From Gemmatimonadota bacterium (GTDB lineage Bacteria; Gemmatimonadota; Gemmatimonadetes; Gemmatimonadales; GWC2-71-9), in NCBI GenBank assembly GCA_041482275.1, contig JBGPDL010000005.1, positions 2,985 through 66,984 on the forward strand: a stretch of 64,000 nucleotides of DNA, written 5' to 3'. Shown in pieces: positions 10,600 through 45,270 of this stretch (positions are counted from its first letter, which is position 1; each line of letters starts with the position of its first letter). Position numbers and translations under genes: made by a program. The notes beneath the pieces are model-generated. The model was given only the letters and a program-made list of their open reading frames with translations, was not told the DNA's origin and ran no database searches.

Positions 10600-11262
10600 C
10601 TAGGCGGCCCCGAGCCGCCGGATCGCGTGCGACTCGTACGCGTGCACGCCGTGCTGCGCCTCGCGCGCCGTGCGAACCATGGCGCGCGCCACCGTTGCCG
10701 CCCGGATCGGGCGGTACCGGGCGAGCGGACCCACCAACATCCAGCCGAAGAGCGGGCTGAGCACCACAGCCATCCGCTCCGCCGGCCGGCTTTGGGCCCG
10801 CGCGCCCACGAGCAACGACGGCCGGAAGATGTGCACGCCGTCGAACTGGAGGCGCCGCAGGGCCTCTTCCACCTCGCCTTTGACCCGGCTGTAGAACATG
10901 CGCGAGCGGGGGTCGGCGCCGACGGCGGTCACGACCAGGAACTGCGCCGCGCGGTGGCGCAGCGCGACGCGGGCCAGCTCCACGACATACGTGTAATCGA
11001 CTTTGCGGAACTCCGCCTCCGAGCCCGCCTGCCGGATCGTCGTGCCGAGACAGCAGAAGACGTCGTGCACCCGGGGGAAGTCGGCGACGTGGGCCAGATG
11101 GTCGAAGTCCACGACGCGCTGGATGAGCTTCTTGTTGGCGAGGGGCAGGTCGCGGCGGGCGAGGACGGTGACGCGGTCGTACTGCGGATCGTCGAGCAGC
11201 AGTCGCGTCACGTGGCCGCCGACGAGCCCGGACGCTCCGGCGACGAGGGCCGTACGGATCAC
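10600..11262 (-). CDS. NAD(P)H-binding atypical SDR (HTATIP2/YraR-like oxidoreductase)
   Basis: 220 aa with an N-terminal Rossmann motif ALVAGASGLVGGHV and a short atypical-SDR length. Confidence 0.75.
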   Translation of the reverse strand: MIRTALVAGASGLVGGHVTRLLLDDPQYDRVTVLARRDLPLANKKLIQRVVDFDHLAHVADFPRVHDVFCCLGTTIRQAGSEAEFRKVDYTYVVELARVALRHRAAQFLVVTAVGADPRSRMFYSRVKGEVEEALRRLQFDGVHIFRPSLLVGARAQSRPAERMAVVLSPLFGWMLVGPLARYRPIRAATVARAMVRTAREAQHGVHAYESHAIRRLGAA

Positions 11263-11720: not shown

Positions 11721-11790
11721 TCTGTTCTCCGGTGAAAGATCCAGCGTGCAGTATGGGCGCGCGGACCGCTTGGCACAAGGAAGCGCTCGC

Positions 11791-12654
11791 TTACCCCTGG
11801 TCGGGGCGGCGGGCGGCGGGGTCCTGGTGGTAGTACTGGCGGAGCTCGTCATACAGGTCGGGCTCCGCAGCTTTGAGCTGCTGCGGTTTCTCAAAAAACG
11901 TCTCGGTGGCGACCGCGAAGAACTCGGCGGGGTTCGTGACACCGTACTCGTGGAGCACGGTGCTACGACCAGCTCGCACATCCTGCTGCAGGCGTTCGTA
12001 GTGCGCGGAGAGGACGCGCGCCCATGACCGCACCAGGGATGGCGAGTCGAGCACGGGCGTGCCGCCCGCGTCGCCGTCCTCCTGGTCGAGCGCATGCGCG
12101 AACTCGTGCAGGGCGACGTCGTTGCCATCCGCCGGATTTGCACCGCCGGCGCGCACGTCATCCCAGGAGAGAATCACCATTCCGTCTCGCCACGCTTCCC
12201 CGCTCGCGACTACGGGAGCCGGCGGAGGCGCGATCTGGCCTACATGCGGCGCGTACTTCGGTCGAAACGCGCTGGGATAGACGAGGATTCGTCTGACTGT
12301 GGGGTAGCAGGGGCCGTCGAGGTGCAGCAGCAGCAGGCAGGCGTGCGCCGCGATCGTGACCCGCATCTCCGCCGTGATCTCGAGGCCGCCGCATCCCTCG
12401 AACGGCTTGTCGTGCACGAACACCTGCACCAGCTGCAGCAGACGCTCGTGCTCCTCCGCCGACAACCCGCTCGCCAGCGGGACGTTCCGAGCGATGATCT
12501 CGTTCCAGCCGTCGGGGATCGGCTCGGTGCGCAGCCGGACGGTACCTCGCGTCGAGCCGATGCGCGGTAGGAGAGCTCGCGCGACCAGCACCGCCACGGT
12601 CAGGACAAGAGCCACCGCTGCGATGACCAAGAGGGCCTGCAGCGCGTCCGGCAC
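11791..12654 (-). CDS. mtfA: MtfA-like zinc metallopeptidase (M90 family) with an N-terminal TM helix
   Basis: 287 aa with the zinc motif HEFAHALD and surrounding M90/MtfA-like sequence. The GTG start is preceded by GAGGAGA. Confidence 0.75.
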   Translation of the reverse strand: MPDALQALLVIAAVALVLTVAVLVARALLPRIGSTRGTVRLRTEPIPDGWNEIIARNVPLASGLSAEEHERLLQLVQVFVHDKPFEGCGGLEITAEMRVTIAAHACLLLLHLDGPCYPTVRRILVYPSAFRPKYAPHVGQIAPPPAPVVASGEAWRDGMVILSWDDVRAGGANPADGNDVALHEFAHALDQEDGDAGGTPVLDSPSLVRSWARVLSAHYERLQQDVRAGRSTVLHEYGVTNPAEFFAVATETFFEKPQQLKAAEPDLYDELRQYYHQDPAARRPDQG

Positions 12655-12738: not shown

Positions 12739-14574
12739 TTACCCGAACACCTCGAGCGCCACCTCCACCTTCCCGAACGGCGCGCTCACCTGCACGCCCT
12801 GCACCGTGCCCTTCACTTGCTGGAACATCTCGCGCGCGATCTTGACCCCTTCGGCGAGCGCAGCCTCTTTGCCCTTGTCCTGCGCCTGGCGCATGCGCCC
12901 GAGCACTGACTCTGGCACCACCACGCCGGGCACTTCGTTCGCGAGAAACTCCGCGTTGCGGAGGCTGATGATCGGCCAGATCCCCGCCACGATGGGGATG
13001 CGGAACTGCTCCACCCGCTTGAGGAACTGCTCGAGCTGCGCGGGATCGAACACCGGCTGCGTCACCGCGAAGTCCGCGCCCGCATCCACCTTCCACGCGA
13101 ACCGCGACAGCTCGCGGTCCAGGTCGACTGCCGCGGGGTTCACCCCCACGCCGATCGCGAACCGGGTCGGCTGGCCGATGGGGTTGCCGCCGGGATCGAG
13201 CCCGTGGTTCAACCGGTATACCAGATTCGTGAGCCCGATGGCGTCGATGTCGAACACCGCGGTCGCGTCGGGATATGGGCCCATCTTGGGCGGGTCACCC
13301 GTGATGATCAGAATATTGCAGAGCCCCGCGGCGGCGGCGCCCAGCACGTCCGACAGCATGCCGAGCAGGTTGCGGTCGCGGCACGAATAGTGGGTGACGG
13401 TCTCGATCCCCACCTCACGCTGGATCATGAGCGACGAGAGCAGCGCCCCCATGCGGCTCTGCGCGCGCGGGCCGTCGGGCACGTTCACCGCGTCGACGCC
13501 CGCCGCCTTGAGCGCCCGGCACTGCGCGAACATCGGCGCGGGATCGACGCCGCGCGGCGGCACGATCTCCACGCTCGTGACGAGCTCGCCCCGGGCCAGC
13601 TTCGCGCCCCAGCGGGACCGCTCGGCCAACGGCACTGCCTCGACCCCCGCGGGCGGGGCCACCAGGTCCCGCGACACCACCACGGGCTGGTGGCGCGGCA
13701 CCACGCTCGCCACGTAGTCGCGGATCTTCTTGATGTGCTCGGGAGTCGTGCCGCAACACCCTCCCACGATGCGCGCGCCGGCCTCAATCATGCGGCGCGC
13801 GTAGCTCGCCATGTACTCGGGGCTCGCGAGGTAAATCTTCCGGTCGCCCACATCCTTCGGCAGGCCGGCGTTCGGCACGGCGGAGATGGGGCGGTCGGTT
13901 GCCTTGACCAGCTTCTCCACCGCTTCGAGCACCCCGGCCGGGCCCACCGAGCAATTCACCCCGACCGCGTCCGCGCCCCACGCGGCGAGTTGTTTGGCGA
14001 ACGTCTCGGGTGCCGTGCCGTAATGGGTGAGTCCGTCGTCGCCCACCGTCATCTGCGCGATCACGGGGAGGTCCGAGAGACTCTGCACCGCGCGCAGCGC
14101 TTCGTGGATCTCATCCACGTCCGAAAACGTCTCCAGGATGAACCCGTCCACGCCGCCCGCGAGCAGGCCCCGCACCTGGCGCTGGAAGTGCGCGAACGCC
14201 TCCTCCCGCGAGGTTGCGCCGAACGGTTCGATCCGGACGCCGAGCGGCCCGATCGCGCCAGCGACGCTCGCCCGTCCCGCCGCGGCCTGGCGCGCCAGCT
14301 CGGCGGCAGCCCGGTTGATCTTCTCGGTGTCGTCGGCCAGCCCGTAGCTCCCCAGCTTCACCGGATTCGCACCGAACGTGTTCGTCTCGAGGATCTCCGC
14401 GCCGGCGCGCACGTAGGCCTCGTGCACGTCCTGGACGAGCTTGGGCTGCTTCAGGCTCAGCTCGTCGTAACAGACGTTCAGCAGGAAGCCCTTCGAGTAC
14501 AGCATCGTACCCATCGCCCCGTCGAGGACGTGGACCTTGCCGTCTTCCAGCAGCTCGCGAAGCGTGATGGTCAT
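12739..14574 (-). CDS. Bifunctional homocysteine S-methyltransferase / 5,10-methylenetetrahydrofolate reductase (YitJ-like)
   Basis: The N-terminal half (LDGAMGT...ETNTF..N..., with GGCCGT near the end of the domain) matches the homocysteine-binding domain. The C-terminal half is MetF-like. Start trimmed to ATG 14574 (MTITLRELLEDGK). Confidence 0.9.
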   Translation of the reverse strand: MTITLRELLEDGKVHVLDGAMGTMLYSKGFLLNVCYDELSLKQPKLVQDVHEAYVRAGAEILETNTFGANPVKLGSYGLADDTEKINRAAAELARQAAAGRASVAGAIGPLGVRIEPFGATSREEAFAHFQRQVRGLLAGGVDGFILETFSDVDEIHEALRAVQSLSDLPVIAQMTVGDDGLTHYGTAPETFAKQLAAWGADAVGVNCSVGPAGVLEAVEKLVKATDRPISAVPNAGLPKDVGDRKIYLASPEYMASYARRMIEAGARIVGGCCGTTPEHIKKIRDYVASVVPRHQPVVVSRDLVAPPAGVEAVPLAERSRWGAKLARGELVTSVEIVPPRGVDPAPMFAQCRALKAAGVDAVNVPDGPRAQSRMGALLSSLMIQREVGIETVTHYSCRDRNLLGMLSDVLGAAAAGLCNILIITGDPPKMGPYPDATAVFDIDAIGLTNLVYRLNHGLDPGGNPIGQPTRFAIGVGVNPAAVDLDRELSRFAWKVDAGADFAVTQPVFDPAQLEQFLKRVEQFRIPIVAGIWPIISLRNAEFLANEVPGVVVPESVLGRMRQAQDKGKEAALAEGVKIAREMFQQVKGTVQGVQVSAPFGKVEVALEVFG

Positions 14575-14592
14575 CCGTTGTCCGTCACCCGG

Positions 14593-14631
14593 AAAAGCAA
14601 GACCCGTCCGGCCGAGCAGCCGCCAAACGGG
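14593..14631 (-). terminator. Terminator-like hairpin plus T-rich tract in the 5' leader of the YitJ-like gene (possible attenuator or riboswitch expression platform)
   Basis: The minus strand reads CCCGT-TTGGCGGCTGCTCGGCCGG-ACGGG followed by TCTTGCTTTTCC. It lies about 20 nt upstream of the ATG. A T-rich run is rare in this GC-rich window. Confidence 0.35.
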
Positions 14632-14633
14632 CT

Positions 14634-14686
14634 GGCGCTTTAGCGACTTGTTTAACGTGGCTGCAATAGGCCGCAAATCACCACGG
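14634..14686 (-). promoter_or_regulatory. Candidate H-type pseudoknot leader RNA (SAM-II/SAM-V-like?) upstream of the YitJ-like gene
   Basis: The minus strand reads CCGUGGUGAUUUGCGGCCUAUUGCAGCCACGUUAAACAAGUCGCUAAAGCGCC. Stem CGUGG/CCACG encloses a loop (UUUGCGGC) that can pair with the 3' tail GUCGC(U)AAA. Its position upstream of a methionine-cycle gene fits a SAM-responsive element. No covariance model was run. Confidence 0.3.
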
Positions 14687-14703
14687 AATCGGTTGTCGAT
14701 TGG

Positions 14704-14731
14704 AATCTAGGTCAACGACGCGCTGCCGCAA
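14704..14731 (-). promoter_or_regulatory. Candidate sigma-70-type promoter for the YitJ-like leader
   Basis: The minus strand has TTGCGG (14731-14726), a 16-nt spacer and TAGATT (14709-14704). This would place the transcription start just upstream of the candidate leader structure. Confidence 0.25.
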
Positions 14732-14754
14732 GCTATCTGTTCTCCCGGTCCATT

Positions 14755-14813
14755 AGTGGAGGTTGGTGAAGGTTACTCCTCCACCATCTTCCACTCTCCT
14801 CCACCACCCTCAC
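14755..14813. repeat. Hairpin element with tandem 10-nt arms (GGTGGAGGNN family), 40 bp upstream of cydA
   Basis: AGTGGAGGTTGGTGAAGGTTA faces TCCTCCACCATCTTCCACT(CTCCTCCACCACCCTCAC). 15 of 19 positions are complementary. The same decamer core occurs in the element inside glcF (41277-41361). Confidence 0.7.
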
Positions 14814-14852
14814 GACCATCCTCCCCTTTCCAAGTAGCTACTTTTCGCAACC

Positions 14853-16193
14853 ATGCCCGACCTCCTCGCCGCGCGCTCGCAGATGGGCATCTCGCTCGCC
14901 TTTCACATCGTGTTCGCGGTCATCGGGATCGCGATGCCGCTCATGATGGTCGTCGCCGAACGGCGCTGGCGGGTGACGGGGCACGCGATCTATCTGGACC
15001 TTGCGAAGCGGTGGGCCGCAGGAACCGCCATTCTCTTCTCGGTGGGCGCGGTGTCCGGGACGGTGCTGTCGTTCGAGCTGGGGCTCTTGTGGCCTGCCTT
15101 CATGCAGCTCGCGGGGCCGATCATCGGGATGCCGTTCTCGCTCGAAGGGTTCGCGTTCTTCACCGAAGCCATATTCCTCGGCATCTACCTGTATGGCTGG
15201 GACCGCATCTCGCCCCGGGCGCACCTCTGGGCCGGCGTGGCCGTGGCGGTGAGCGGGGCCGCGTCCGGCGTGTTCGTGGTGATCGCCAATGCGTGGATGA
15301 ACGCGCCCGCGGGTTTCGAGCTCGTGAACGGCCATGTGGTGAACGTCGACCCGATCGCCGCGATGGGGAACGCGGCGGCCCTCTCGCAGACCATCCACGT
15401 GACGCTCGCGGCGTACGCCGCCACTGGGTTCGCCGTCGCCGGGATCCACGCGTTCCTGCTGCTCAAAGATCCGGCGAATGCGTTTCACCGCCGCGCGCTC
15501 GAGATTGCGCTCCTCGTGGGCGCGCCCGCCGCCATCCTGCAGCCGCTGTCGGGCGATCTCTCGGCGCATCACGTCGCCGTGCATCAGCCGGTGAAGCTCG
15601 CCGCCGCGGAAGCCCTGTTCCAGACTCGGGCGGGGGCGCCCCTCACGCTGGGCGGCTGGCCCGACGTAGCGGCGCGCGCAACGCGGTTCGCGATCGAAGT
15701 CCCGTACGGGCTGTCATTGCTCGCCTTCCATGATCCTCACGCCGAGGTGAAGGGGCTCGACCTTGTCCCCCCTAGCGACTGGCCCAACATCCCGGCGGTG
15801 CATCTGTCATTCCAGCTCATGGTGGCGCTCGGCACGTACCTGGCGGTGGTCTCCCTCTGGGTGGGCTGGCTCGCGTGGCGCCGGGCGGACCTGGCGGACC
15901 ACCGCTGGCTGATGCGGGCGATCGCGCTCGCCACGCCGCTCGGTTTCGTGGCGGTGGAGGCGGGATGGATGGTGACCGAGCTGGGTCGGCAGCCATGGGT
16001 GATCTACGGCGTGCTGAAAACGGCAGACGCCGTCACGCCCATGCCGGGGCTCGTCGTGCCGTTCATCACCTTCACGTTGCTGTATTGTTTCCTCGGCGTG
16101 ATCGTCGTCTGGCTCATGTACCGACAGATCATCCGCAGTCCCGGGACTCCGGAGTGGCGGGGGTTCTACATGCCGAAGGGAGAGGCCGGATGA
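14853..16193 (+). CDS. cydA: Cytochrome bd-type quinol oxidase subunit I
   Basis: 446 aa. The N-terminus LLAARSQMGISLAFHIVFA.IGI matches the CydA signature. The short Q-loop length class and the cydB gene downstream support the call. Confidence 0.93.
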   Translation: MPDLLAARSQMGISLAFHIVFAVIGIAMPLMMVVAERRWRVTGHAIYLDLAKRWAAGTAILFSVGAVSGTVLSFELGLLWPAFMQLAGPIIGMPFSLEGFAFFTEAIFLGIYLYGWDRISPRAHLWAGVAVAVSGAASGVFVVIANAWMNAPAGFELVNGHVVNVDPIAAMGNAAALSQTIHVTLAAYAATGFAVAGIHAFLLLKDPANAFHRRALEIALLVGAPAAILQPLSGDLSAHHVAVHQPVKLAAAEALFQTRAGAPLTLGGWPDVAARATRFAIEVPYGLSLLAFHDPHAEVKGLDLVPPSDWPNIPAVHLSFQLMVALGTYLAVVSLWVGWLAWRRADLADHRWLMRAIALATPLGFVAVEAGWMVTELGRQPWVIYGVLKTADAVTPMPGLVVPFITFTLLYCFLGVIVVWLMYRQIIRSPGTPEWRGFYMPKGEAG

Positions 16194-16197
16194 CTGA

Positions 16198-16290
16198 TTG
16201 GTACGTAGTACGTGGTGCGTGGTTGCCTACGACGCGGGTTGCGCGCGCGGCCCGCGCCGCATGCCACCACGTACCACGCACCACGCAGGG
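16198..16290. repeat. Hairpin element with tandem 7-nt arms (GTACGTG/GTGCGTG family) filling the cydA-cydB junction
   Basis: Arm GTACGTAGTACGTGGTGCGTGGTTGCC (16201-16227) faces GCATGCCACCACGTACCACGCACCACGC (16259-16286). A GC-rich central mini-hairpin reads GCGGG..CCCGC. The cydA stop and cydB start are 106 nt apart instead of abutting. Confidence 0.7.
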
Positions 16291-21467: not shown

Positions 21468-24400
21468 CAGGCGACGAACGCCGCCGCCAGCATGCGTGCC
21501 TGCTCCGCCTGGTGGGCCGCGGGGTAGCCTTCCGCCGGGCTCGAGCGCTCGGGGCGCGCGATCGCCTGCAGGGTGAGCGTCGCCGGCACGAGCTCGCGCA
21601 GCTGCGGCAGCATGAACTTCTGGGGTCCCATGTTACGCGGCTCCTCCTGCACCCACACGATCTCTCGCAGGTTGGGATAGCCGCGCACCAGGGCCGCGAG
21701 CTCCTCGCGCGGGAAGGGGTACAGCAGCTCCACACGCCCGATCGCCACGTGCGTGGCCTGAGCCCGCGCCGGCGCCAGCGTGAGGTCGTAGTACACCTTG
21801 CCGCTGCACAGGATGAGCCGCTCCACCGCCTCGCGGCGCTCGGCCGCCGTGCGATCGTCGAGCACCGGCTGGAACCGCCCGCCCGTCAGCTCTTCGAGCC
21901 GCGAGTTCGCCTGCGGCAGGCGCAGCAGGCTCTTGGGTGTGAACAGCACCAGCGGACGGAGCTCCGTGTGGCGCGCCTGGCGCCGCAGCAGGTGGAAGTA
22001 CTGCGCCGGCGTGGTGCAATTCGCGATGCGGATGTTCCCGTCGGCGCCGAGCGCCAAGAACCGCTCGATCCGTGCGCTCGAATGCTCGGGTCCCTGGCCC
22101 TCGTAGCCGTGCGGCAGGAGCAGGGTGAGACGGGACGTCTGCCCCCACTTCGCGAGCCCGGCGATGAGGAACTGATCGATGATGACCTCGGCGCCGTTCG
22201 TGAAGTCCCCGTATTGCGCCTCCCACAGCACCAGCGTCTCGGGCGCCGCCGCCGCGTAGCCGTACTCGAAGCCCAGGCAGGCGAACTCGGAGAGCGGGCT
22301 GTTGTGCAGCTCGAACGGCGCGCGCGCCCCAGGGAGGTTCTGGATCGGCGCATGACGGCGGCCGTCCGTCGCGTCGTGGAGCACCAGGTGGCGCTGGCTG
22401 AACGTGCCGCGCTCCGTGTCCTGACCTGTGAGGCGGATCGCCGTCCCTTCGGCCACGAGCGACGCGAATGCCAGGGCTTCGGCGTGTGCCCACTCGATCT
22501 GTCCCTCGGCAAGGGCCGGGCGCCGCCGCTCGAGCTGCTTCATCAGCTTGGGAATGACGCTGAAACCGTCCGGCACCATCAGGAGTTGCTCGTTCAACGT
22601 CGTGAGCAGCGGCGCGGCCACCGCCGTGTCGGGCTCGGCGACCGGCTGCTGCCCGCCGGAGATGCGCTGCGGCTCCTCGCCCGCTCCCGCTTCGCGCAGG
22701 TGAGCCTTGAGCGATTGCTGGATGTCCGCGAGCCGCTGGTACACCTGCTCGACGTCGGCGCTCGCCTGGGCCTCCGCTACCACGCCCTCGCGCGCCAGCT
22801 GGTCGGCGTAGCGCTGCCGCGCCGTGGGTGTCTGCTTGATCCGTTCGTACATCACCGGCTGCGTGTACGCCGGCTCGTCGCCTTCGTTGTGACCGTGCCG
22901 CCGGTAGCCCACCACGTCGATCACCACGTCCGCGTGGAACTTGTCGCGGTACAGCATGGCGAGCCGTGCCGCCGCGACGCACGCCTCCGGATCGTCGGCG
23001 TTGACGTGGACGATCGGCGCGTCGAAGCCCTTGGCCAAGTCGCTCGAGTAATCGGTCGAGCGCCCTTCCTTGGGGTCGGTGGTGAAGCCGAGCTGGTTGT
23101 TCGCGATCAGGTGGATGGTGCCGCCGGTGGTGTAGCCCTTCAGGCGGGCGAGGTTGAACGTCTCCGCCACCACCCCCTGGGCGGCGAACGACGCATCCCC
23201 GTGGATCAGCACGGGCAGCGCCACCGACCCGTCCTGGATCGCGTCCTTGCCGCGGCGATTGGTCTGGTTGGCCCGCGCGCGTCCCTCGACCACCGGGTTC
23301 ACGGCTTCGAGATGGCTCGGGTTCGGGGTCAGCGTGATGTTGACGGGCTTGCCCGCGGCGGTCTGGTACACGCCGTCGGCGCCGTGGTGGTACTTCACGT
23401 CGCCCGTGCCGCCCTCGGGCGTGAGTGTTTCCTCCACGTGCCGCCCGCCTTCGAACTCGGCGAAGATCGTCTCGTAGGGGAGTCCCACGATGTGGGCGAG
23501 CACGTTCAACCGGCCGCGGTGCGCCATGCCGAGCACCAGCCGCCGGGCCCCGCTCGCGCCGGCCAGCTCGATCGTCTGGTCGAGCATCGGGACGAGCACG
23601 TCGAGCCCCTCGATCGAGAAGCGCTTGTGGCCAAGGTAGGCCTTGTGCAAAAAGCGCTCGAGCGTCTCGACCGCCGTCAGGCGCGACAGCAGCTTGCGCC
23701 TTTCGTCGGGCGCAAGGGGCTTGCGATGCTCGCCCGATTCGATCACCTGACGCAGCCAGAGGCGCTCCTGGTGGCTGCCGATGTGCTCCACCTCGTACGA
23801 GATGGTGCCGCAGTACGTCTCCTGCAGCCTCGGATAGGCCTCGGCGAGCGTCCGCCCGGGGACGTAGATGCGCAGCAAGTCGGCCGGGATGCGGGCCATG
23901 ATCTCGGGGCTCAAGCCCAGCGGCGCGGGATCGAGCGCTGGATCGCCCGGCGGCTCGGAGCCAAGCGGGTCGAGCCGTGCGGCGAGGTGACCGAAATGCC
24001 GGATCGCTTTTACCAGCGCCATGGCGGCGGCCACATGCTTGAGATCTTCGACCCCGGGCTCCACCCCCGCGCCGGGGAGCGCGGAGCGGGGAGCGGTTCC
24101 TGTCGGTGCAGCAGAGGGCACCGCTCCCTGCTCCCCGCTCCCTTTGAGTCTCAGGCTCTCGAATACCGATCCGTAGAACCCGTCTGCGTCCTGGAGCAGA
24201 TCGTCGAGCCGACGGAGAAACATCCCCGACTCCGCCCCCTGTATGATGCGGTGATCGTAGGTCGACGTGATCGTCATGACCTTGGCCGGTCCACTCGAAC
24301 GGATCGCGCCGGTCGCGATGATCGAGCCTTGGCCCTTCATGAGGCGCGGCACCGAGGCGACCGTCCCGATGGTGCCGGGGTTCGTGAGCGTGATGGTCGC

Positions 24401-25090
24401 GCCTGCGAAGTCGTCCGGGAGGAGGCGGTTGGTGCGCGCCTTCTCGACCAGGCTCTCGTACGCCGCGTGGAAGGTCGCGAAGTCCATGGCCTCGGCGTGC
24501 CGGATGACGGGGACCACCAGGGCGTGGCTGCCGTCCTTCTTCTCCACGTCCACGGCGAGTCCGAGGTGCAGCGCATGCGGATCGAACCGGTGCGCCTTGC
24601 CCTCCACTTCCTGGAACGCGTGCGTCATCACCGGGAATTGGCGCGCGGCGCGCGCGATCGCGTGGCCGATCAAGTGGGTGAAAGAAACCTTCTTACCGGT
24701 CGCGGCGAGCGCGCTGTTCAGCTCGCGGCGCCGGGCGTCCAGGACATCGACCGCGATCTCGCGGAACGAGGTGGCGGTCGGGACGGACAGGGAGTCCGTC
24801 ATGTTCTGGACGAGACGGGCGGCGGGACCGGTGATGGGGGTCAGGCTCGTTGAGACCGTGAGCGGGGAGCTGGGAGCGGCACCCGCCGTGGCAGCGGAGG
24901 GAACCGGTCCCTGCTCCCCGCTCCCGAGCACTTCGGCGCGGCTCGTCGGGATCACCGGCAGCTCTGCCAGCTTCCCATTGTCGAAGAGGCTCCGCCACTC
25001 CTCGTCCACGGAGGAGGGATCCCGCAGGTACTGCTCGTACATCACCTGCACGAAGGCGGCATTGTGCGTGCCGAAGACGAACTCGCTCAC
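21467..25090 (-). CDS. sucA: 2-oxoglutarate dehydrogenase E1 component of the Kgd/OdhA type (E1o fused to an N-proximal E2-like acyltransferase domain)
   Basis: 1207 aa with a SucA N-terminus (FGTHNAAFVQVMYEQYLRDPSSVDEEWR). An acyltransferase catalytic domain ends in STYDHRIIQGAESG. A full E1o/TPP region follows (HRGRLNVL..., GDVKYH, NPSHLE). The start is GTG, with AGGTGA upstream. Confidence 0.93.
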   Translation of the reverse strand: MSEFVFGTHNAAFVQVMYEQYLRDPSSVDEEWRSLFDNGKLAELPVIPTSRAEVLGSGEQGPVPSAATAGAAPSSPLTVSTSLTPITGPAARLVQNMTDSLSVPTATSFREIAVDVLDARRRELNSALAATGKKVSFTHLIGHAIARAARQFPVMTHAFQEVEGKAHRFDPHALHLGLAVDVEKKDGSHALVVPVIRHAEAMDFATFHAAYESLVEKARTNRLLPDDFAGATITLTNPGTIGTVASVPRLMKGQGSIIATGAIRSSGPAKVMTITSTYDHRIIQGAESGMFLRRLDDLLQDADGFYGSVFESLRLKGSGEQGAVPSAAPTGTAPRSALPGAGVEPGVEDLKHVAAAMALVKAIRHFGHLAARLDPLGSEPPGDPALDPAPLGLSPEIMARIPADLLRIYVPGRTLAEAYPRLQETYCGTISYEVEHIGSHQERLWLRQVIESGEHRKPLAPDERRKLLSRLTAVETLERFLHKAYLGHKRFSIEGLDVLVPMLDQTIELAGASGARRLVLGMAHRGRLNVLAHIVGLPYETIFAEFEGGRHVEETLTPEGGTGDVKYHHGADGVYQTAAGKPVNITLTPNPSHLEAVNPVVEGRARANQTNRRGKDAIQDGSVALPVLIHGDASFAAQGVVAETFNLARLKGYTTGGTIHLIANNQLGFTTDPKEGRSTDYSSDLAKGFDAPIVHVNADDPEACVAAARLAMLYRDKFHADVVIDVVGYRRHGHNEGDEPAYTQPVMYERIKQTPTARQRYADQLAREGVVAEAQASADVEQVYQRLADIQQSLKAHLREAGAGEEPQRISGGQQPVAEPDTAVAAPLLTTLNEQLLMVPDGFSVIPKLMKQLERRRPALAEGQIEWAHAEALAFASLVAEGTAIRLTGQDTERGTFSQRHLVLHDATDGRRHAPIQNLPGARAPFELHNSPLSEFACLGFEYGYAAAAPETLVLWEAQYGDFTNGAEVIIDQFLIAGLAKWGQTSRLTLLLPHGYEGQGPEHSSARIERFLALGADGNIRIANCTTPAQYFHLLRRQARHTELRPLVLFTPKSLLRLPQANSRLEELTGGRFQPVLDDRTAAERREAVERLILCSGKVYYDLTLAPARAQATHVAIGRVELLYPFPREELAALVRGYPNLREIVWVQEEPRNMGPQKFMLPQLRELVPATLTLQAIARPERSSPAEGYPAAHQAEQARMLAAAFVA
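24074..24142. repeat. In-frame hairpin element (GGGGAGC heptad family), copy 1, inside sucA between the E2-like and E1 domains
   Basis: GGGGAGCGCGGAGCGGGGAGCGGTT faces GCACCGCTCCCTGCTCCCCGCTCCC, with 21 of 23 positions complementary. On the coding strand it is translated as KGSGEQGAVPSAAPTGTAPRSALPG. Confidence 0.75.
24859..24928. repeat. In-frame hairpin element (GGGGAGC heptad family), copy 2, inside sucA between the N-terminal segment and the E2-like domain
   Basis: GAGCGGGGAGCTGGGAGCGGCACC faces GAACCGGTCCCTGCTCCCCGCTCCCGAG. It is translated as LGSGEQGPVPSAATAGAAPSSPL. It has the same orientation and reading frame as copy 1 and is offset from it by exactly 783 nt. Confidence 0.75.
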
Positions 25091-38290: not shown

Positions 38291-38488
38291 ATGAAGCGTA
38301 TCGCATTGGCCCTCGCCGTCGTGGCGCTGGGCGCCTGTAAGAAGGCGGAGCAGCAGCCCGCGCAGAGTCAGATGATGAGCGACACGTCGCACATGATGAT
38401 GAGCGACACCTCGCACATGCAGATGATGGTCGACACCTCGATGCACGTGATGAAGGCCGACACGTCGAAGCCCAAGAAAAAGCCGTAA
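38291..38488 (+). CDS. Small lipoprotein with Met/His-rich tandem repeats (putative metal-binding)
   Basis: The ATG is preceded by AAGAGGAG. The signal/lipobox is MKRIALALAVVALGAC. The mature part reads QMMSDTSHMMMSDTSHMQMMVDTSMHVMKADTSKPKKKP and is encoded by about four degenerate 21-24-nt DNA repeats. Confidence 0.65.
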   Translation: MKRIALALAVVALGACKKAEQQPAQSQMMSDTSHMMMSDTSHMQMMVDTSMHVMKADTSKPKKKP

Positions 38489-40559: not shown

Positions 40560-41825
40560 TCAAGCATAATAGCCCGCCGCCCGGTACGATTCGTCGAGCA
40601 GCTCGACCGGATGCCGCACGGCGGCCGTAAGGCCCGCCGCTCCAAGCCCGGCGCCGAGCTGCATGAGGCACCCGGGATTGCCAGTGGCCACCACCTGAGG
40701 CCGGGCCTCGGCGAGCGAGGCGAGTTTCGGCGCCAGTACGGCGCGCGACATCGCCGGCTCGACCAGCGTGAACAGCCCCGCGCTGCCGCAACACTGTGCC
40801 GCGTCGGCCGTGGCGGTCACCCGCAGGACGGGAATCGCGGCCAACAGGCGCAGCGGCGGCTCGGCGATCCGCTGGGCGTGCAGCAGGTGGCACGGCGGAT
40901 CGTAGGCGACGGTGGCGTCGACCGGCGCGCCGGGCCGCGGGCCCCGGTCTGCGAGCAGCTCGCTCACGTCCCGCACCCGGGCGGCGAAGCTCGTCCCGGA
41001 ACCGTCGACCAGGTGGCCGTACTCCTTGAGCGTCGCTCCGCACCCCGCGCTGTTGACGACGATGAGCTCTGCGGCGTCGCTGCCGAAGGCGGCGACGTTG
41101 GTTCGAGCGAGTCGCCGCGCCTCGTCCCGCAGGCCGGCGTGCGCGTGCAACGCGCCGCAGCACACCTGCGCCGGGACCTCGCGCACGGCGTAGCCGTTCA
41201 CTTCGAGGGTGCGGATGGTGGCGTCGTGCACGTGAGAGAAGAGGCCGTCCATGATGCAGCCGCGGAACAACAGGACGGTGGAGGATGGTGGAGGATGGTG
41301 GAGGATGTCGCGGGGCGCACCTCTACCACCCTCCACTGCCCTCCACCGCCCTCCACCGCCCTTCGGCGCCGTTGCCGCGAGCATCCCCATCGCGAACCGG
41401 AACCGCCCCCACCCCGCGAGGCGGCGCGGGATTCCTGTCGCGCGCAACGCCCGCGCCAACGCGTACAGGATGCGCGATCCGCCCGCGCCCGTGAGGGCCG
41501 CGAGCGCCGCGCGCACGAGGGGCGGCACACCCCCCGCTCGGCGCTCCGCCATGAAGGCCCGGGCGGCCTCCAGCCCGCGGCCGTAGCCCACGCCCGACGG
41601 GCAGACGGGCTCGCACCCGCGGCACCCGAGACAGCGGTCGAGGTGCAGAGCGACGCCGGGGTCGTCCGGCGCCAACTCGCCGGTCTCGACCGCGCGCATC
41701 AGCTCGATGCGGCCGCGCGGGCTGTCGGCCTCGTCGCCGGTGGCGAGAAAGGTGGGGCACGCCTGGAGGCAGAAGCCACAATGCACGCAACTGTCCAGCG
41801 CTTCGAAGCCCCCGCGATCCGTCAT
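40560..41825 (-). CDS. glcF: Glycolate oxidase iron-sulfur subunit
   Basis: Start at ATG 41825 (MTDRGGFEALDSCVHCGFCLQACP). It has two 4Fe-4S motifs (CxxCxxCxxxCP) and two CCG domains. It contains a roughly 28-aa repeat-derived insert. Confidence 0.9.
   Translation of the reverse strand: MTDRGGFEALDSCVHCGFCLQACPTFLATGDEADSPRGRIELMRAVETGELAPDDPGVALHLDRCLGCRGCEPVCPSGVGYGRGLEAARAFMAERRAGGVPPLVRAALAALTGAGGSRILYALARALRATGIPRRLAGWGRFRFAMGMLAATAPKGGGGRWRAVEGGRGAPRDILHHPPPSSTVLLFRGCIMDGLFSHVHDATIRTLEVNGYAVREVPAQVCCGALHAHAGLRDEARRLARTNVAAFGSDAAELIVVNSAGCGATLKEYGHLVDGSGTSFAARVRDVSELLADRGPRPGAPVDATVAYDPPCHLLHAQRIAEPPLRLLAAIPVLRVTATADAAQCCGSAGLFTLVEPAMSRAVLAPKLASLAEARPQVVATGNPGCLMQLGAGLGAAGLTAAVRHPVELLDESYRAAGYYA
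41277..41361. repeat. In-frame hairpin element with tandem 10-nt arms (GGTGGAGGNN family) inside glcF
   Basis: (GGTGGAGGAT)x3 faces CACCTCTACCACCCTCCACTGCCCTCCACCGCCCTCCACCGCCC. On the coding strand it is translated as KGGGGRWRAVEGGRGAPRDILHHPPPSST. Confidence 0.75.
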
Positions 41826-43033
41826 TCCGCTCCTTCGACTGCCACCACGAACGCCTCGCCGGGATCGAACGTGCGTCGCAGCCCGGCCACGAGCGGACCC
41901 ACGCCTTCGCGGTAGGCGCCGAAGTGACCGACGGCGGCGCGGATCGGCCAGGGGGCGCGCTCCAGCGTGAGGGGCACCTCGAGCCCGGCCAACGTGCGCC
42001 GCAGCCGTCGCAGCCGATCGGCCGTGGTCGCGCCGCCCCACCTGATCGCACCGATCCCCGGACTCGCCGAGATCCACTCGTCACCAACCTGGTGCTGCAG
42101 CAGGTCCAGCAGCTCGTCGCTCGAGTCCGCGAGCCCGCCGATGCGGAACGCCACCGGCCGGGCGGCAAAGCTCTCGGCGGCGCGCATCCACACGGCGTGG
42201 GCTTCGTCCGCCCGGAGCGCGCTGAAGCGTCCCCCGGTGGCGGCGCGCAGCCCGGTCTCCTCGGCCGAGACGAGGGCCGCCGACCCGGCGAACCGGACCG
42301 CCAGCAGCCAGCGCTCACGGCGCGCCAGCGCGGGCGACAGCAGCTCGTGCGCCGCCGGCTGGATGCCGGCCGCGGCGATGTCCTCGGCCACCTGCGTCAG
42401 GTCCTCGCGCGATCCCTCGAGCACGAGCGTCGTGTCGGCGCGCGGCAGGGCGCGGAGCCGCAGATGCACCAGCACGATCACGCCGAACGCGCCGAACCCG
42501 CCCGCTTCGAGTTTGGTGAGGTCGTAGCCAGCGACGTTCTTCATTACCCGGCCGCCGCTCTGCACCAGCCGGCCGTCGCCGGTCACGAACGTGACGCCCA
42601 GGAGATGGTCGCGCACCGGACCGAATCCCTGCCGCAGGGGGCCCGCCGTCGCGGTCGCCACGATCGAGCCGAGCGTGCGGCCGGCGAGCCCCGGCGGATC
42701 GAGGGCGAGCCAGGTGCCACGGTCCGCGAGCTGTTGACGCAGCAGGTCGCAACCGATGCCCGCTTCCGCGGTTGCGGAGAGGTCCTGCGGCTCGATGGCG
42801 GGGACCTTGTCCAGCCGGCGCGTGGTGAGGGCCAGGTCGGCGGGAGCATCGGCCGCGAGCCAGGTGCCGGCCCCCTCGATCCGGATGCGCCATCCTTCTT
42901 CGCGCGCCGTTCCGAGCAGCAGAGCGACCGCATCCGGCGACGCTGGCGCCACCCGGGGCACGCCGTCCGGCGTGGCGGCCCGATCCACGGCCTCGTCGCC
43001 GAGCAGGGCACGGACGCGCTCGACGAGACTCAT
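41822..43033 (-). CDS. glcE: Glycolate oxidase FAD-binding subunit
   Basis: Start at ATG 43033 (MSLVERVRALLG). It has an FAD_binding_4-like domain and 4-nt overlaps with both glcD and glcF. Confidence 0.85.
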   Translation of the reverse strand: MSLVERVRALLGDEAVDRAATPDGVPRVAPASPDAVALLLGTAREEGWRIRIEGAGTWLAADAPADLALTTRRLDKVPAIEPQDLSATAEAGIGCDLLRQQLADRGTWLALDPPGLAGRTLGSIVATATAGPLRQGFGPVRDHLLGVTFVTGDGRLVQSGGRVMKNVAGYDLTKLEAGGFGAFGVIVLVHLRLRALPRADTTLVLEGSREDLTQVAEDIAAAGIQPAAHELLSPALARRERWLLAVRFAGSAALVSAEETGLRAATGGRFSALRADEAHAVWMRAAESFAARPVAFRIGGLADSSDELLDLLQHQVGDEWISASPGIGAIRWGGATTADRLRRLRRTLAGLEVPLTLERAPWPIRAAVGHFGAYREGVGPLVAGLRRTFDPGEAFVVAVEGAE

Positions 43034-44445
43034 GCGACCCCCGCCCATTCCCGGCACGCGTGAATCGGTACCACTTTCCCCGGGTTCACCCGCTCGTCCG
43101 GGTCGAACACACGGCGCACCGCCCGCATCGCGGCCAGCGAGTCGCCGTCGAACATCAGCGGCATGTACCGCAGCTTGTCGAGCCCGACACCGTGCTCGCC
43201 GGTGATCGTGCCGCCGGCCGCGATGCACACGGCCATCATCTCCCCGCTGGCCGCGTCGACGCGCGCCTTCAGGCCGGGCACCCGGCCGTCGAACGAGATG
43301 TTGGGATGCAGATTGCCGTCTCCCGCGTGGAACACGTTGCTGACGGTGAGCCCGTAGCTCGCAGCGATCCTGCCGATGGCCTCGAGCACGTCGGGCAGGG
43401 CGGAGCGGGGAACCACGGCGTCCTGCACGACCAGATCGCGCGACAGGCGGCCCATGGCGCCGAACGCCTTCTTCCGGCCCAGCCACAGCCGTTCGCGCTG
43501 CTTCGCGTCCGCTGCCGCGAGCACCGTCCGGGCCCCGTGGGCGCGCAAGATGCTCTCGATGGTTTCGGCATCCGCCGCCACCGCTTCCTCCCGTCCTCCG
43601 TCCAGCTCGACGAGCAGCACGGCCGCCGCGTCGCGCGGGTATCCCGCCGCGTATACCGAATCTTCCACCGCGCGGATGCACGACTGATCCATCATCTCGA
43701 GCGCCGCGGGCACGATGCCGCTGGCGATCACGGCCGACACGGCCTCCCCGGCTGTCCGGAGCGCGCCGAAGTCAGCGAGCAGCGTGCGAATCGCCGGCGG
43801 TACGGCCAGGAGCCGCACGGCGATGCGGGTGGCGATCCCGAAATTACCTTCCGAGCCCACGAACAGGCCCGCCAGGTCGGGCCCCCACGGCTCGCCGCCG
43901 GGGCTCCCCAGCTCGACGGCCCGTCCGTCCGCGAGCACGACTTCCAGCGCGAGCACGTGATTCGCCGTCACGCCGTACTTGAGGCAATGGGGGCCGCCCG
44001 CATTTTCCGCCACGTTGCCGCCGATCGTGCAGGCGGTCTGACTCGACGGATCGGGGGTGTACTGCAGGCCGTGAACGGCCGCGGCGGCCGAGAGCCGTGC
44101 GTTCACCACACCGGGCTCCACCACGGCAAGGCGATTCTTCGGGTCGATCGTGAGAATACGGTTGAGTCGCGTGAGCACCAGGAGGACCGCCTCGCCGCCC
44201 GCCAGCGCCCCGCCCGACAGTCCGGTGCCCGCGCCCCGCGGCACCACGGGCACGCCCAGCGCGGCGAGCAACCGCACGACGGCGACCACCTCGTCGCGGC
44301 TGCCGGGGAGCACCACGACACCGGGCACGTGACGATGGGTCGGCAACCCGTCCCGCGCGTAGGTGACGCGCTCGGGCAGCGCGGTACGCACGTGACGCGC
44401 GCCGACGATCTCGGCGAGCGCGTCGACCAAGGATCCGCCCGTCAC
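43030..44445 (-). CDS. glcD: Glycolate oxidase subunit GlcD (FAD-linked oxidase)
   Basis: 471 aa with the FAD-binding PCMH domain (VVPRGAGTGLSGGA) and a GlcD-like C-terminal domain. Confidence 0.9.
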   Translation of the reverse strand: MTGGSLVDALAEIVGARHVRTALPERVTYARDGLPTHRHVPGVVVLPGSRDEVVAVVRLLAALGVPVVPRGAGTGLSGGALAGGEAVLLVLTRLNRILTIDPKNRLAVVEPGVVNARLSAAAAVHGLQYTPDPSSQTACTIGGNVAENAGGPHCLKYGVTANHVLALEVVLADGRAVELGSPGGEPWGPDLAGLFVGSEGNFGIATRIAVRLLAVPPAIRTLLADFGALRTAGEAVSAVIASGIVPAALEMMDQSCIRAVEDSVYAAGYPRDAAAVLLVELDGGREEAVAADAETIESILRAHGARTVLAAADAKQRERLWLGRKKAFGAMGRLSRDLVVQDAVVPRSALPDVLEAIGRIAASYGLTVSNVFHAGDGNLHPNISFDGRVPGLKARVDAASGEMMAVCIAAGGTITGEHGVGLDKLRYMPLMFDGDSLAAMRAVRRVFDPDERVNPGKVVPIHACREWAGVA

Positions 44446-45128: not shown

Positions 45129-45157
45129 AGGTAAATAGTATACGGGAAAGGCCACGG

Positions 45158-45257
45158 CTAGACGCGCCGACGCACAGGGGAGGACAGCGAAGAGGGGCCA
45201 GGACAACGCTTGTCCTGACCCCTCACACCGTTCACCGCTGCGCGTCGGCGCGTCTAG
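45158..45257. repeat. 100-nt nested palindrome between the sigma-factor gene and the LON-N/glc operon (probable terminator or structured RNA)
   Basis: The outer perfect 16-nt inverted repeat is CTAGACGCGCCGACGC (45158-45173) / GCGTCGGCGCGTCTAG (45242-45257), and it extends imperfectly. The inner hairpin is GAGGGGCCAGGACAA-CGC-TTGTCCTGACCCCTC (about 45192-45224). Confidence 0.6.
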
Positions 45258-45270
45258 TTGTGGCAGGTCT

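Follow-up and report, generated by a model that had tools for sequence, protein, structure and literature searches.

We analyzed a 64,000-nt stretch of a Gemmatimonadota genome (order Gemmatimonadales; contig JBGPDL010000005.1, positions 2,985 to 66,984; hereafter the window) in which glcF, the gene for the glycolate oxidase Fe-S subunit, contains a repeat-armed DNA hairpin of approximately 90 nt (41272-41362). The hairpin belongs to a class of cassettes, each consisting of two convergent arrays of a 7-, 8- or 10-nt unit, with the G-rich arm first and a non-repetitive loop between the arms. These elements were abundant in Gemmatimonadales, were defined at the nucleic-acid level and were confined to tolerant places; they were gained, lost and replaced as units, and their arms and units changed together. 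In our reading, to which we give a probability of approximately one-half, the glcF element and its class are DNA-level repeats, selfish or neutral, that only disordered linkers and gene junctions tolerate.

The hairpin in the glcF reading frame

The element and its host gene comprise the following features.

40560-41825, minus strand: glcF, the host gene, encoding the glycolate oxidase Fe-S subunit of 421 aa (Pfam Fer4 and two CCG domains; names of homologues)
41271-41369, minus strand: hypervariable GlcF linker, residues 153-185, wholly filled by the hairpin (alignments of 22 and 81 orthologues; DNA homology breaks at the borders)
41320-41362, minus strand: G-rich 5' arm on the glcF sense strand, (GCGGTGGAGG)x4.3, encoding KGGGGRWRAVEGG (Tandem Repeats Finder, TRF; inverted repeat; paired in the minimum free energy fold, MFE)
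41308-41319, minus strand: hairpin loop, encoding about RGAPRD (inverted-repeat registers; MFE fold)
41272-41307, minus strand: C-rich 3' arm on the glcF sense strand, (CCACCATCCT)x3.6, encoding ILHHPPPSS (TRF; inverted repeat; MFE fold)

Read on the plus strand, the arms were (AGGATGGTGG)x3.6 at 41272-41307 (96% matches) and (CCTCCACCGC)x4.3 at 41320-41362 (87% matches; TRF, period 10 in both), and the spacer dinucleotide was uniformly GC in one arm and uniformly AT in the other. Together they formed an inverted repeat of 33-36 nt that was 81-82% complementary in several pairing registers, with a loop of 12-25 nt depending on the register. As sense (minus) strand RNA, the hairpin folded at -75 kcal/mol, compared with -47.6 +/- 3.9 for shuffled sequences (z = -6.96), and none of 200 dinucleotide shuffles matched this energy. 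As DNA it folded at -33.9 kcal/mol (z = -4.7). Both energies were thus stronger than in shuffled controls, the comparison that a preliminary description of this DNA had proposed. No T run follows the glcF copy on its 3' side (GTCCTGTTGTTCCGC), and the hairpin does not fit the intrinsic-terminator pattern.

The same description had reported a palindrome read through in frame between the N-terminal ferredoxin-like part and the first CCG domain, and both points held: the two arrays were translated as ...APKGGGGRWRAVEGGRGAPRDILHHPPPSSTVL... (GlcF residues 153-185). The Fer4 dicluster domain (residues 10-79) precedes this segment, and the first of two CCG domains begins at residue 184. With a unit of 10 nt, the reading phase shifts from one to the next of the three to four units in an arm, which makes the peptide non-repetitive. 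A repeat at the protein level is excluded, since neither 7-nt nor 10-nt periods yield a peptide repeat.

Cassettes at orthologous sites

The window GlcF was identical to a protein of an NCBI metagenome-assembled genome, and all close homologues came from Gemmatimonadales metagenome-assembled genomes and soil metagenomes. In a set of 81 Gemmatimonadales sequences (80 fetched loci and the window), the segment between the conserved GM(L/V)AA(T/S) and LFRGC motifs was present in every GlcF, at 20-77 aa, and E. coli GlcF has approximately 17 aa (AETVKAKPRPPLRHKR), basic and Pro-rich, at the same linker position. The clean insertion of roughly 28 aa originally proposed is excluded by this linker in every orthologue and in E. 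coli. The hairpin instead fills a linker that was hypervariable between almost invariant flanks (alignments of 22 and 81 orthologues), lengthening it by only approximately 6-15 aa. In the AlphaFold model of GlcF, which was poor (mean predicted local distance difference test score, pLDDT, 47.7), the linker was the lowest-confidence coil, between a helix and the first CCG strand. The site is a disordered linker occupied by the hairpin; the model gives weak support for the coil.

Linker DNA folded with z <= -4 in 37 of the 81 loci, with stems made from tandem units. In more distant lineages the linker was without a hairpin (z near 0). These units differed by lineage, at least 10 unrelated ones occurring among the 37 folding linkers: period 10 (GGTGGAGGnn, GGGGAGGTT, GGCGGTAAGA, GGACGGTAAG, GGGCGGCGGA), period 7 (GCGGAAT, GCGGAGT, GCGGAAC, GGGGAGC, GGGATTC), period 8 (CGGACGGT, GATGGAAA) and others. 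Cassette type was discordant with the gene tree. Outside the linker, the window GlcF, with its decamer, was 95.6% identical to P0002, which carries the heptamer CGGAACG, and 92.5% identical to P0017, which carries GCGGAAT; P0004 (decamer) and P0110 (heptamer) were 98.4% identical in their GlcF flanks. DNA homology ended just past the conserved Thr codon and restarted at TTGTTCCGCGGC. The 20-30 nt beside the cassette showed mosaic patterns of single-nucleotide polymorphisms, which suggests that some of the shuffling of alleles is due to homologous recombination. Decayed copies were present in P0116 and P0092, and the reading frame was unbroken in the 81 loci and in 120 proteins, with many independent assemblies among them. 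That the element behaves as a repeat at the nucleic-acid level, not as a protein motif, is borne out by a period that is not a multiple of 3, by complementary arms, by a hypervariable peptide and by unrelated cassettes that occupy one site between flanks 95-98% identical.

In three more distant Gemmatimonadales (L066, L071 and L072), the GlcF linker (about L071:3000-3230; L072 linker) carried in-frame palindromes of another kind, long, near-perfect and non-periodic, such as GAGTCACCCTGAGCGGAGCGAAGGGGCCAT / ATGGCCCCTTCGCTCCGCTCAGGGTGACTC and TCATCCCGAGCGCAGGGAGGGA.../...TCCCTCGCTGCGCTCGGGATGA. Similar palindromes are common in soil bacteria.

The window gene for an OdhA/Kgd-type 2-oxoglutarate dehydrogenase (1211 codons) contains two in-frame hairpins, both between Pfam domains.

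24073-24143, minus strand: hairpin of the heptamer GGGGAGC, in frame in linker 2 of OdhA/Kgd, which joins the E2-like domain to the E1 domain, encoding GSGEQGAVPSAAPTGTAPRSALPG
24860-24925, minus strand: hairpin of the GGGGAGC family, in frame in linker 1 of OdhA/Kgd, which joins the N-terminal helix to the E2-like domain, encoding GSGEQGPVPSAATAGAAPSSPL

Aligned stretches that include these two copies matched in 62 of 92 columns, and the loops were recognizably related. Eighty metagenomic orthologues gave 133 linkers, of which 123 folded with z <= -3 and 131 contained heptamer-armed hairpins, all with the G-rich arm first (131:0). Approximately 15 different GGGNNNN units were found, in many combinations of linker 1 with linker 2. 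Cassettes of GGGGAGC, GGGGAGT and GGGGAGA had homologous loops, and the differences between them were double changes that compensate each other and recur at one unit position in every unit of both arms. The covariation score was 0.140, compared with 0.049 in shuffled data (0 of 500 shuffles as high) and at most 0.045 in slid controls. The arms and units of the OdhA cassettes evolve in concert as a whole.

Two further cassettes of the window flank cydA.

14755-14824, unstranded: sibling decamer copy in the divergent intergenic region before cydA, with a G-rich arm at 14755-14772 and a C-rich arm, (TCCTCCACCA)x4.6, at 14777-14824
16199-16287, unstranded: heptamer hairpin (TGGTACG / CCACGYA) filling the 106-nt gap between cydA and cydB (TRF; inverted repeat)

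The kinship of the first copy with the glcF element, as initially described, was confirmed: when the glcF unit is reverse-complemented (ATCCTCCACC) and rotated, it gives TCCTCCACCA. Only three period-10 arrays in the window scored >= 50, namely the two glcF arms and the array upstream of cydA, and GGTGGAGG occurred 18 times compared with 2.9 +/- 1.6 expected. The cydA-upstream copy is, however, short, lopsided and partly decayed (approximately two G-rich units versus 4.6 C-rich units); its inverted repeat of 18 nt (14755-14772 / 14778-14795) is 83% complementary, and its RNA fold (-27.4 kcal/mol, z = -3.5) is weaker than that of the glcF copy. It ends approximately 30 nt 5' of the cydA ATG (14853), and a terminator-pattern scan of 14500-15000 gave no site there. 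The two copies of one decamer family that had been proposed are thus both real, but they form part of a much larger class with many units.

Comparison of the window with six relatives (L166-L171) showed gain, loss and replacement at both cydA sites. Upstream of cydA, decamer cassettes were present in L167 and L171 and the C-rich arm alone in L168; L169 and L170 had a heptamer cassette of the unit CCACGCA, and L166, the closest relative, had a single unit left and was nearly empty. This site is a hot spot for cassettes, and the same decamer before cydA in L167, L168 and L171 excludes a decamer specific to glcF. At the cydA-cydB junction, the window, L169 and L170 had the 106-nt heptamer hairpin and L166 and L168 a plain ATGA overlap. 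In L167 and L171 (both 2820-2859), only a G-rich half-cassette was present, without loop or C-rich arm (unit GGGGAAA in L167, GGGATGC in L171); translated, it adds 6 aa to the C-terminus of CydA, and it abuts the overlapping cydB start. ATGAC stands on both sides of the window insert; it is not exact in L169 and L170, and it is also required for the stop and start codons.

In L167, the G-rich and C-rich decamer arms upstream of cydA (1240-1500) are approximately 150 nt of unrelated sequence apart, either through a nested insertion or as a very large loop. A scan of the window against Rfam 15 at the gathering score gave no match for the hairpins; its sole hit was a SAM_alpha (SAM-II) riboswitch at 14620-14694 on the minus strand (53.3 bits, gathering score 36). 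The riboswitch precedes a gene for a 611-aa fusion of homocysteine S-methyltransferase and methylenetetrahydrofolate reductase (about 12739-14576). This gene and cydA are divergent, an arrangement kept in the six relatives.

The glcD end at the glcD-glcE junction was a further recurrent site (L002:8709-8786, L007:8696-8773, L020:8709-8786, L025:8697-8774, L043:8674-8762 and others), glcD being called at 503 aa with a cassette and 471 aa without one. Both genes lie upstream of glcF in the window, where their junction is empty (about 43030-43063). The cassettes at this junction belong to the GCGGAAY/GCGGATT heptamer group, members of which fill the glcF linker of some genomes as well. Within L020, the glcD-site and glcF-site cassettes were identical at 68 of 80 positions, with 11 of 16 in the loop, and this loop-inclusive identity indicates that whole cassettes were copied between sites or homogenized by conversion. 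The same cassette, loop included, was found at different sites of one genome in L020, L055, L079 and the OdhA gene of the window. We had also considered that like peptides at different loci reflect the same insertion phase; this was dropped, because three 7-nt units make 21 nt and any phase permutes the 7-aa pattern cyclically.

Two other observations concern the surroundings of glcF. At window positions 45151-45264 there is an inverted repeat with 27-nt arms, 89% complementary, and a 60-nt loop that holds a small hairpin; its arms (CTAGACGCGCCGACGCACAG...) resemble a period-8 ACAGACGC hairpin at L004:540-636, a similar distance upstream of glcF, and the two are probably orthologous junction hairpins. 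Just downstream of glcF, L079 has two long hairpins of the octamer GACGGTC(A/G) (10937-11058 and 11756-11910; arms of 40 and 60 nt) with similar loop starts, which lie 700 bp apart, bracket a short region and could be a composite element.

Census and polarity of repeat-armed hairpins

The census covered 1,318,467 bases (the window and 80 loci of up to 21 kb each); sampling was confined to the surroundings of three genes in related genomes, and all counts include orthologous sites and are not numbers of independent events. Strong ungapped inverted repeats were found 200 times, compared with 30 in shuffled DNA. Both arms had an equal period in 82 of the 200 (period 7, 51; period 8, 15; period 10, 14; period 9, 2), and in none from the shuffles. 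A detector that searched for arrays first returned 325 short tandem arrays compared with 26 in shuffles; 118 of the 325 lay in neighboring inverted pairs (59 pairs), and neighboring direct pairs numbered 4. Cassettes had a density of approximately one per 16 kb in the sampled regions, with five in the window (glcF, upstream of cydA, the cydA-cydB gap and two in OdhA/Kgd).

Approximately 60 of the 82 periodic hairpins were assigned to gene junctions by best-frame comparison of a home-made codon-usage score, which misassigns a few glcF-site copies and was used because simple thresholds on the codon score or on G+C content at third codon positions misjudged known genes. The in-frame copies of the census were nearly all at the glcF site, where loci were chosen. 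Cassettes fell between Pfam domains, and their peptides in linkers were Gly/Arg-rich first and then Pro/Ser-rich. Units without a stop codon in any phase of either strand made up 20 of 22 in-frame copies versus 34 of 60 junction copies; inside genes only stop-free unit families can survive. Non-coding copies had an A-rich upstream and a T-rich downstream flank (2.9 and 3.0 of 10 nt, compared with approximately 1.5 expected), the T enrichment being modest, and in distant lineages several hairpins stood directly 3' of the glcF stop codon.

The G-richer arm was the 5' arm in 74 of 81 informative hairpins, on either strand (74:7; binomial P = 3e-15), in 54 of the 56 with a strong skew (54:2) and by 52:7 outside coding DNA. 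The polarity was weaker in non-periodic hairpins (82:30). Because it is strand-symmetric, neither reading frame nor gene orientation explains it.

Unit families were numerous within single genomes, with up to five different, unrelated units in 20 kb of L046. Pairs from the same locus shared a unit in 8 of 52 cases, compared with 4% between loci. These figures weaken the notion of one mobile family, or of a single template, per genome. The cydA relatives aside, the glcF-type decamer was found in the fetched loci at glcF only.

Explanations and known systems

If the cassettes are selfish or neutral repeats, replication slippage would expand and homogenize the units inside an arm, which would account for the periodicity, the homogeneity of units and the arm-specific spacer variants. 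Complementarity of the arms would be kept by selection on pairing or by template switching within the hairpin, that is, quasi-palindrome correction, for which switching between arms is the accepted route (PMC3820800). New sites would be seeded by some copying step, and homologous recombination would shuffle cassettes among lineages. The glcF cassette would be a tolerated passenger, translated as a disordered linker and not an enzyme requirement, because a hairpin is missing from many orthologues and some copies are decayed. The G-first polarity may reflect a filter against C-rich, Rho-attracting RNA exposed before its partner arm is transcribed.

Several points weigh against this reading. No copying machinery was seen in the 64-kb window and the relatives' pieces of approximately 20 kb or less, with RAYT (REP-associated tyrosine transposase), IS200/IS605 and reverse-transcriptase genes not searched genome-wide. 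At the glcF, OdhA and cydA sites, a hairpin persists across lineages despite replacement of its sequence, as selection on structure predicts, and selection on RNA pairing accounts for the compensatory changes just as well. For the strong G-first rule, the selfish-repeat model offers no demonstrated cause. The junction calls rest on the home-made score with its misassignments, and the census counts, from related loci, are not independent.

The main rival, less probable and in our view unlikely, is that the hairpins are selected RNA or DNA structures: 3' stabilizers, processing sites or factor-independent terminators at junctions, and ribosome-slowing or operon-tuning structures in glcF and odhA, with the repeat arms a by-product of long-stem growth. 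The structure is kept while its sequence is replaced at four orthologous sites, and the compensatory changes, the A-rich and T-rich flanks, the location of most copies at gene ends (in distant lineages, several abut the stop codon of glcF) and the position of in-frame copies exactly at domain borders all fit this explanation, as does the position of analogous Xanthomonas arrays approximately 28 nt after the upstream open reading frame (ORF; PMC4692102). Rehm et al. nevertheless found no regulatory effect of those arrays (PMC4692102). Moreover, many GlcF orthologues are without a hairpin at the site (z near 0), cydA-cydB is a plain ATGA overlap in close relatives, decayed and one-armed copies persist, the in-frame glcF copy is without the T-tract of a terminator, and a stem of -75 kcal/mol would more probably burden an ORF than serve it as a tuned pause.

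We consider it rather improbable that the cassettes are non-autonomous mobile elements resembling repetitive extragenic palindromes (REP), bacterial interspersed mosaic elements (BIME) or miniature inverted-repeat transposable elements (MITE), on which a RAYT or IS200/IS605 TnpA, or another enzyme, acts in trans, favoring hairpin-bearing sites. The recurrence of one cassette with its loop at different sites (L020, L055, L079, window OdhA), the discrete filled and empty sites, the ATGAC on both sides of the window cydA-cydB insert and the displacement of unrelated families by one another at one site would be expected of such elements. However, neither a transposase, nor a terminal inverted repeat beyond the hairpin, nor a consistent target duplication was seen in the window and the relatives' pieces, which cover small parts of the genomes; no conserved terminal tag was seen either, L169 and L170 are without an exact ATGAC, and the mosaic flanks fit recombination. 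The five units in 20 kb of L046 likewise contrast with REP families, which are usually few per genome. Discrete gain or loss at the cydA sites supports part of the mobile or templated element first proposed, whose mobility is inferred.

Very improbable, although it would directly predict the polarity, is an origin as scars of chromosome-break healing, in which both 3' ends of a break or gap are extended with the same G-rich unit (by a telomerase-like enzyme, a reverse transcriptase or a slipping polymerase) and joined, as in a bacterial equivalent of head-to-head telomere fusion whose palindrome breaks again and is healed with a new unit. The G-rich strand would then run 5' to 3' toward the center on both strands (74:7 and 131:0), a non-palindromic loop would mark the junction, and cassettes would be replaced recurrently at one site, as seen in 98%-identical genes. 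Inverted pairs also far outnumber neighboring direct ones (59 versus 4). Loops and irregular units shared between copies show, to the contrary, that many were made by copying and not de novo; the many units per genome argue against a single template, non-periodic hairpins are also G-first (82:30), and a repeat-adding enzyme was not seen in the sampled DNA. To our knowledge, no enzyme for such repeat addition is known.

An ordinary low-complexity linker (Gly-rich, then Pro-rich) with a chance palindrome at the G+C content of the window (70%), or an assembly artifact, is hardly credible: the peptide is linker-like, the E. coli linker is basic and Pro-rich and the host is a metagenome-assembled genome, but the fold (z = -7; 0 of 200 shuffles as good), the non-repetitive peptides from period-10 and period-7 units, the lack of periodic hairpins in shuffled DNA, the same architecture in non-coding DNA, the compensatory changes and the intact frame in 81 loci and 120 proteins all contradict it.

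Among known systems, the closest likeness is to the arrays described by Rehm et al. in 2015 (PLoS One, PMC4692102), with units GGGAATC in Xanthomonas and GGGGA(C/T)T in Nostoc and 70-75 convergent pairs per Xanthomonas genome; these typically have three to four units, can form stem-loops, are mostly intergenic approximately 28 nt after an ORF and vary among close relatives. Like them, the glcF arms are convergent arrays of one unit on opposite strands, and the OdhA cassettes use heptamers of the same GGGNNNN style. The Rehm unit is a G-quadruplex-capable 7-nt GGGANTN or GGGGAYT, a pattern followed by the window OdhA unit GGGGAGC, whereas the glcF unit (GGTGGAGGNN) has 10 nt and GG runs only, and units such as GCGGAAT and CGGACGGT cannot form classical G-quadruplexes. 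Whereas the Rehm arrays are intergenic after an ORF, the glcF copy is in frame inside a gene, approximately 60 of the 82 copies of the class being at junctions. Many unit families per genome and a different phylum contrast with the one family of Rehm et al., as does in-frame residence at fixed linker sites in conserved enzymes. Neither replacement in 98%-identical genes nor arms that evolve in concert were described by them.

The Rickettsia palindromic elements (RPE; Ogata et al. 2000, Science, and 2002, Genome Res, as summarized in PMC10969869) have a length of about 100-150 bp and stand in frame in housekeeping genes that are unrelated to one another; they are translated, and their position in loops is judged compatible with the protein fold. 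The glcF copy is likewise an in-frame, translated palindrome in a housekeeping gene. RPE differ in their conserved sequence and peptide families and non-tandem arms, and neither a G-first rule nor mutual replacement at one orthologous site is reported for them. Homology of the cassettes to RPE families is very unlikely in view of their periodic arms, G+C content and host phylum. REP and BIME are imperfect palindromes, short and rich in G+C, whose many copies lie for the most part at the ends of genes in operons, with proposed roles in mRNA stability or termination; REP have 20-40 nt, non-periodic arms, a GTAG or CGTC end tag, extragenic positions and a RAYT gene (PMC3333891, PMC3733652). The glcF element, at approximately 90 nt with periodic arms, has GTAG at neither end, and CGTC at its 3' border (CCACCGTCCTG) is the conserved Pro-Val codon pair. 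MITE have IS-related terminal inverted repeats and a target-site duplication; beyond the hairpin, no terminal repeats were seen here. The short tandemly repeated repetitive (STRR) sequences of cyanobacteria reportedly form genome-wide tandem arrays of heptamers, with several unit families per genome (Mazel et al. 1990). Tandem heptamers and several unit families in one genome are common to both, whereas STRR are said to be direct arrays in non-coding DNA, without inverted pairing, in-frame linkers or turnover.

Full-text literature searches returned nothing specific on hairpin repeats of Gemmatimonadota or on in-frame heptamer palindromes of this type. The cassettes are a little-described class in Gemmatimonadales, which extends the Xanthomonas and Nostoc heptamer puzzle to another phylum and to coding DNA. 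If the class is as described here, cassettes of Gemmatimonadales write the linkers of the central enzymes GlcF and OdhA/Kgd, fill operon junctions and turn over faster than the genes diverge. Two regularities must be explained by any mechanism: the G-rich arm comes first, and all units in both arms evolve in concert. The cassettes offer a natural system for the conversion of selfish DNA to linker sequence, for the survival of long palindromes and for the effect of very stable mRNA stems on translation. They also serve as hypervariable markers for strain typing, and are a source of spurious hypervariable regions and of breaks in metagenome assemblies.

Apart from the cassettes, a tandem repeat of 24-27 nt was observed on the plus strand of the window (38369-38468), inside a short ORF whose end is at 38488. 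The encoded repeat is rich in Met, His and Asp (QMMSDTSHMMMSDTSHMQMMVDTSMHVMKADTS...KPKKKP), and the product looks like a small secreted or lipoprotein metal-binding peptide, possibly for Cu.

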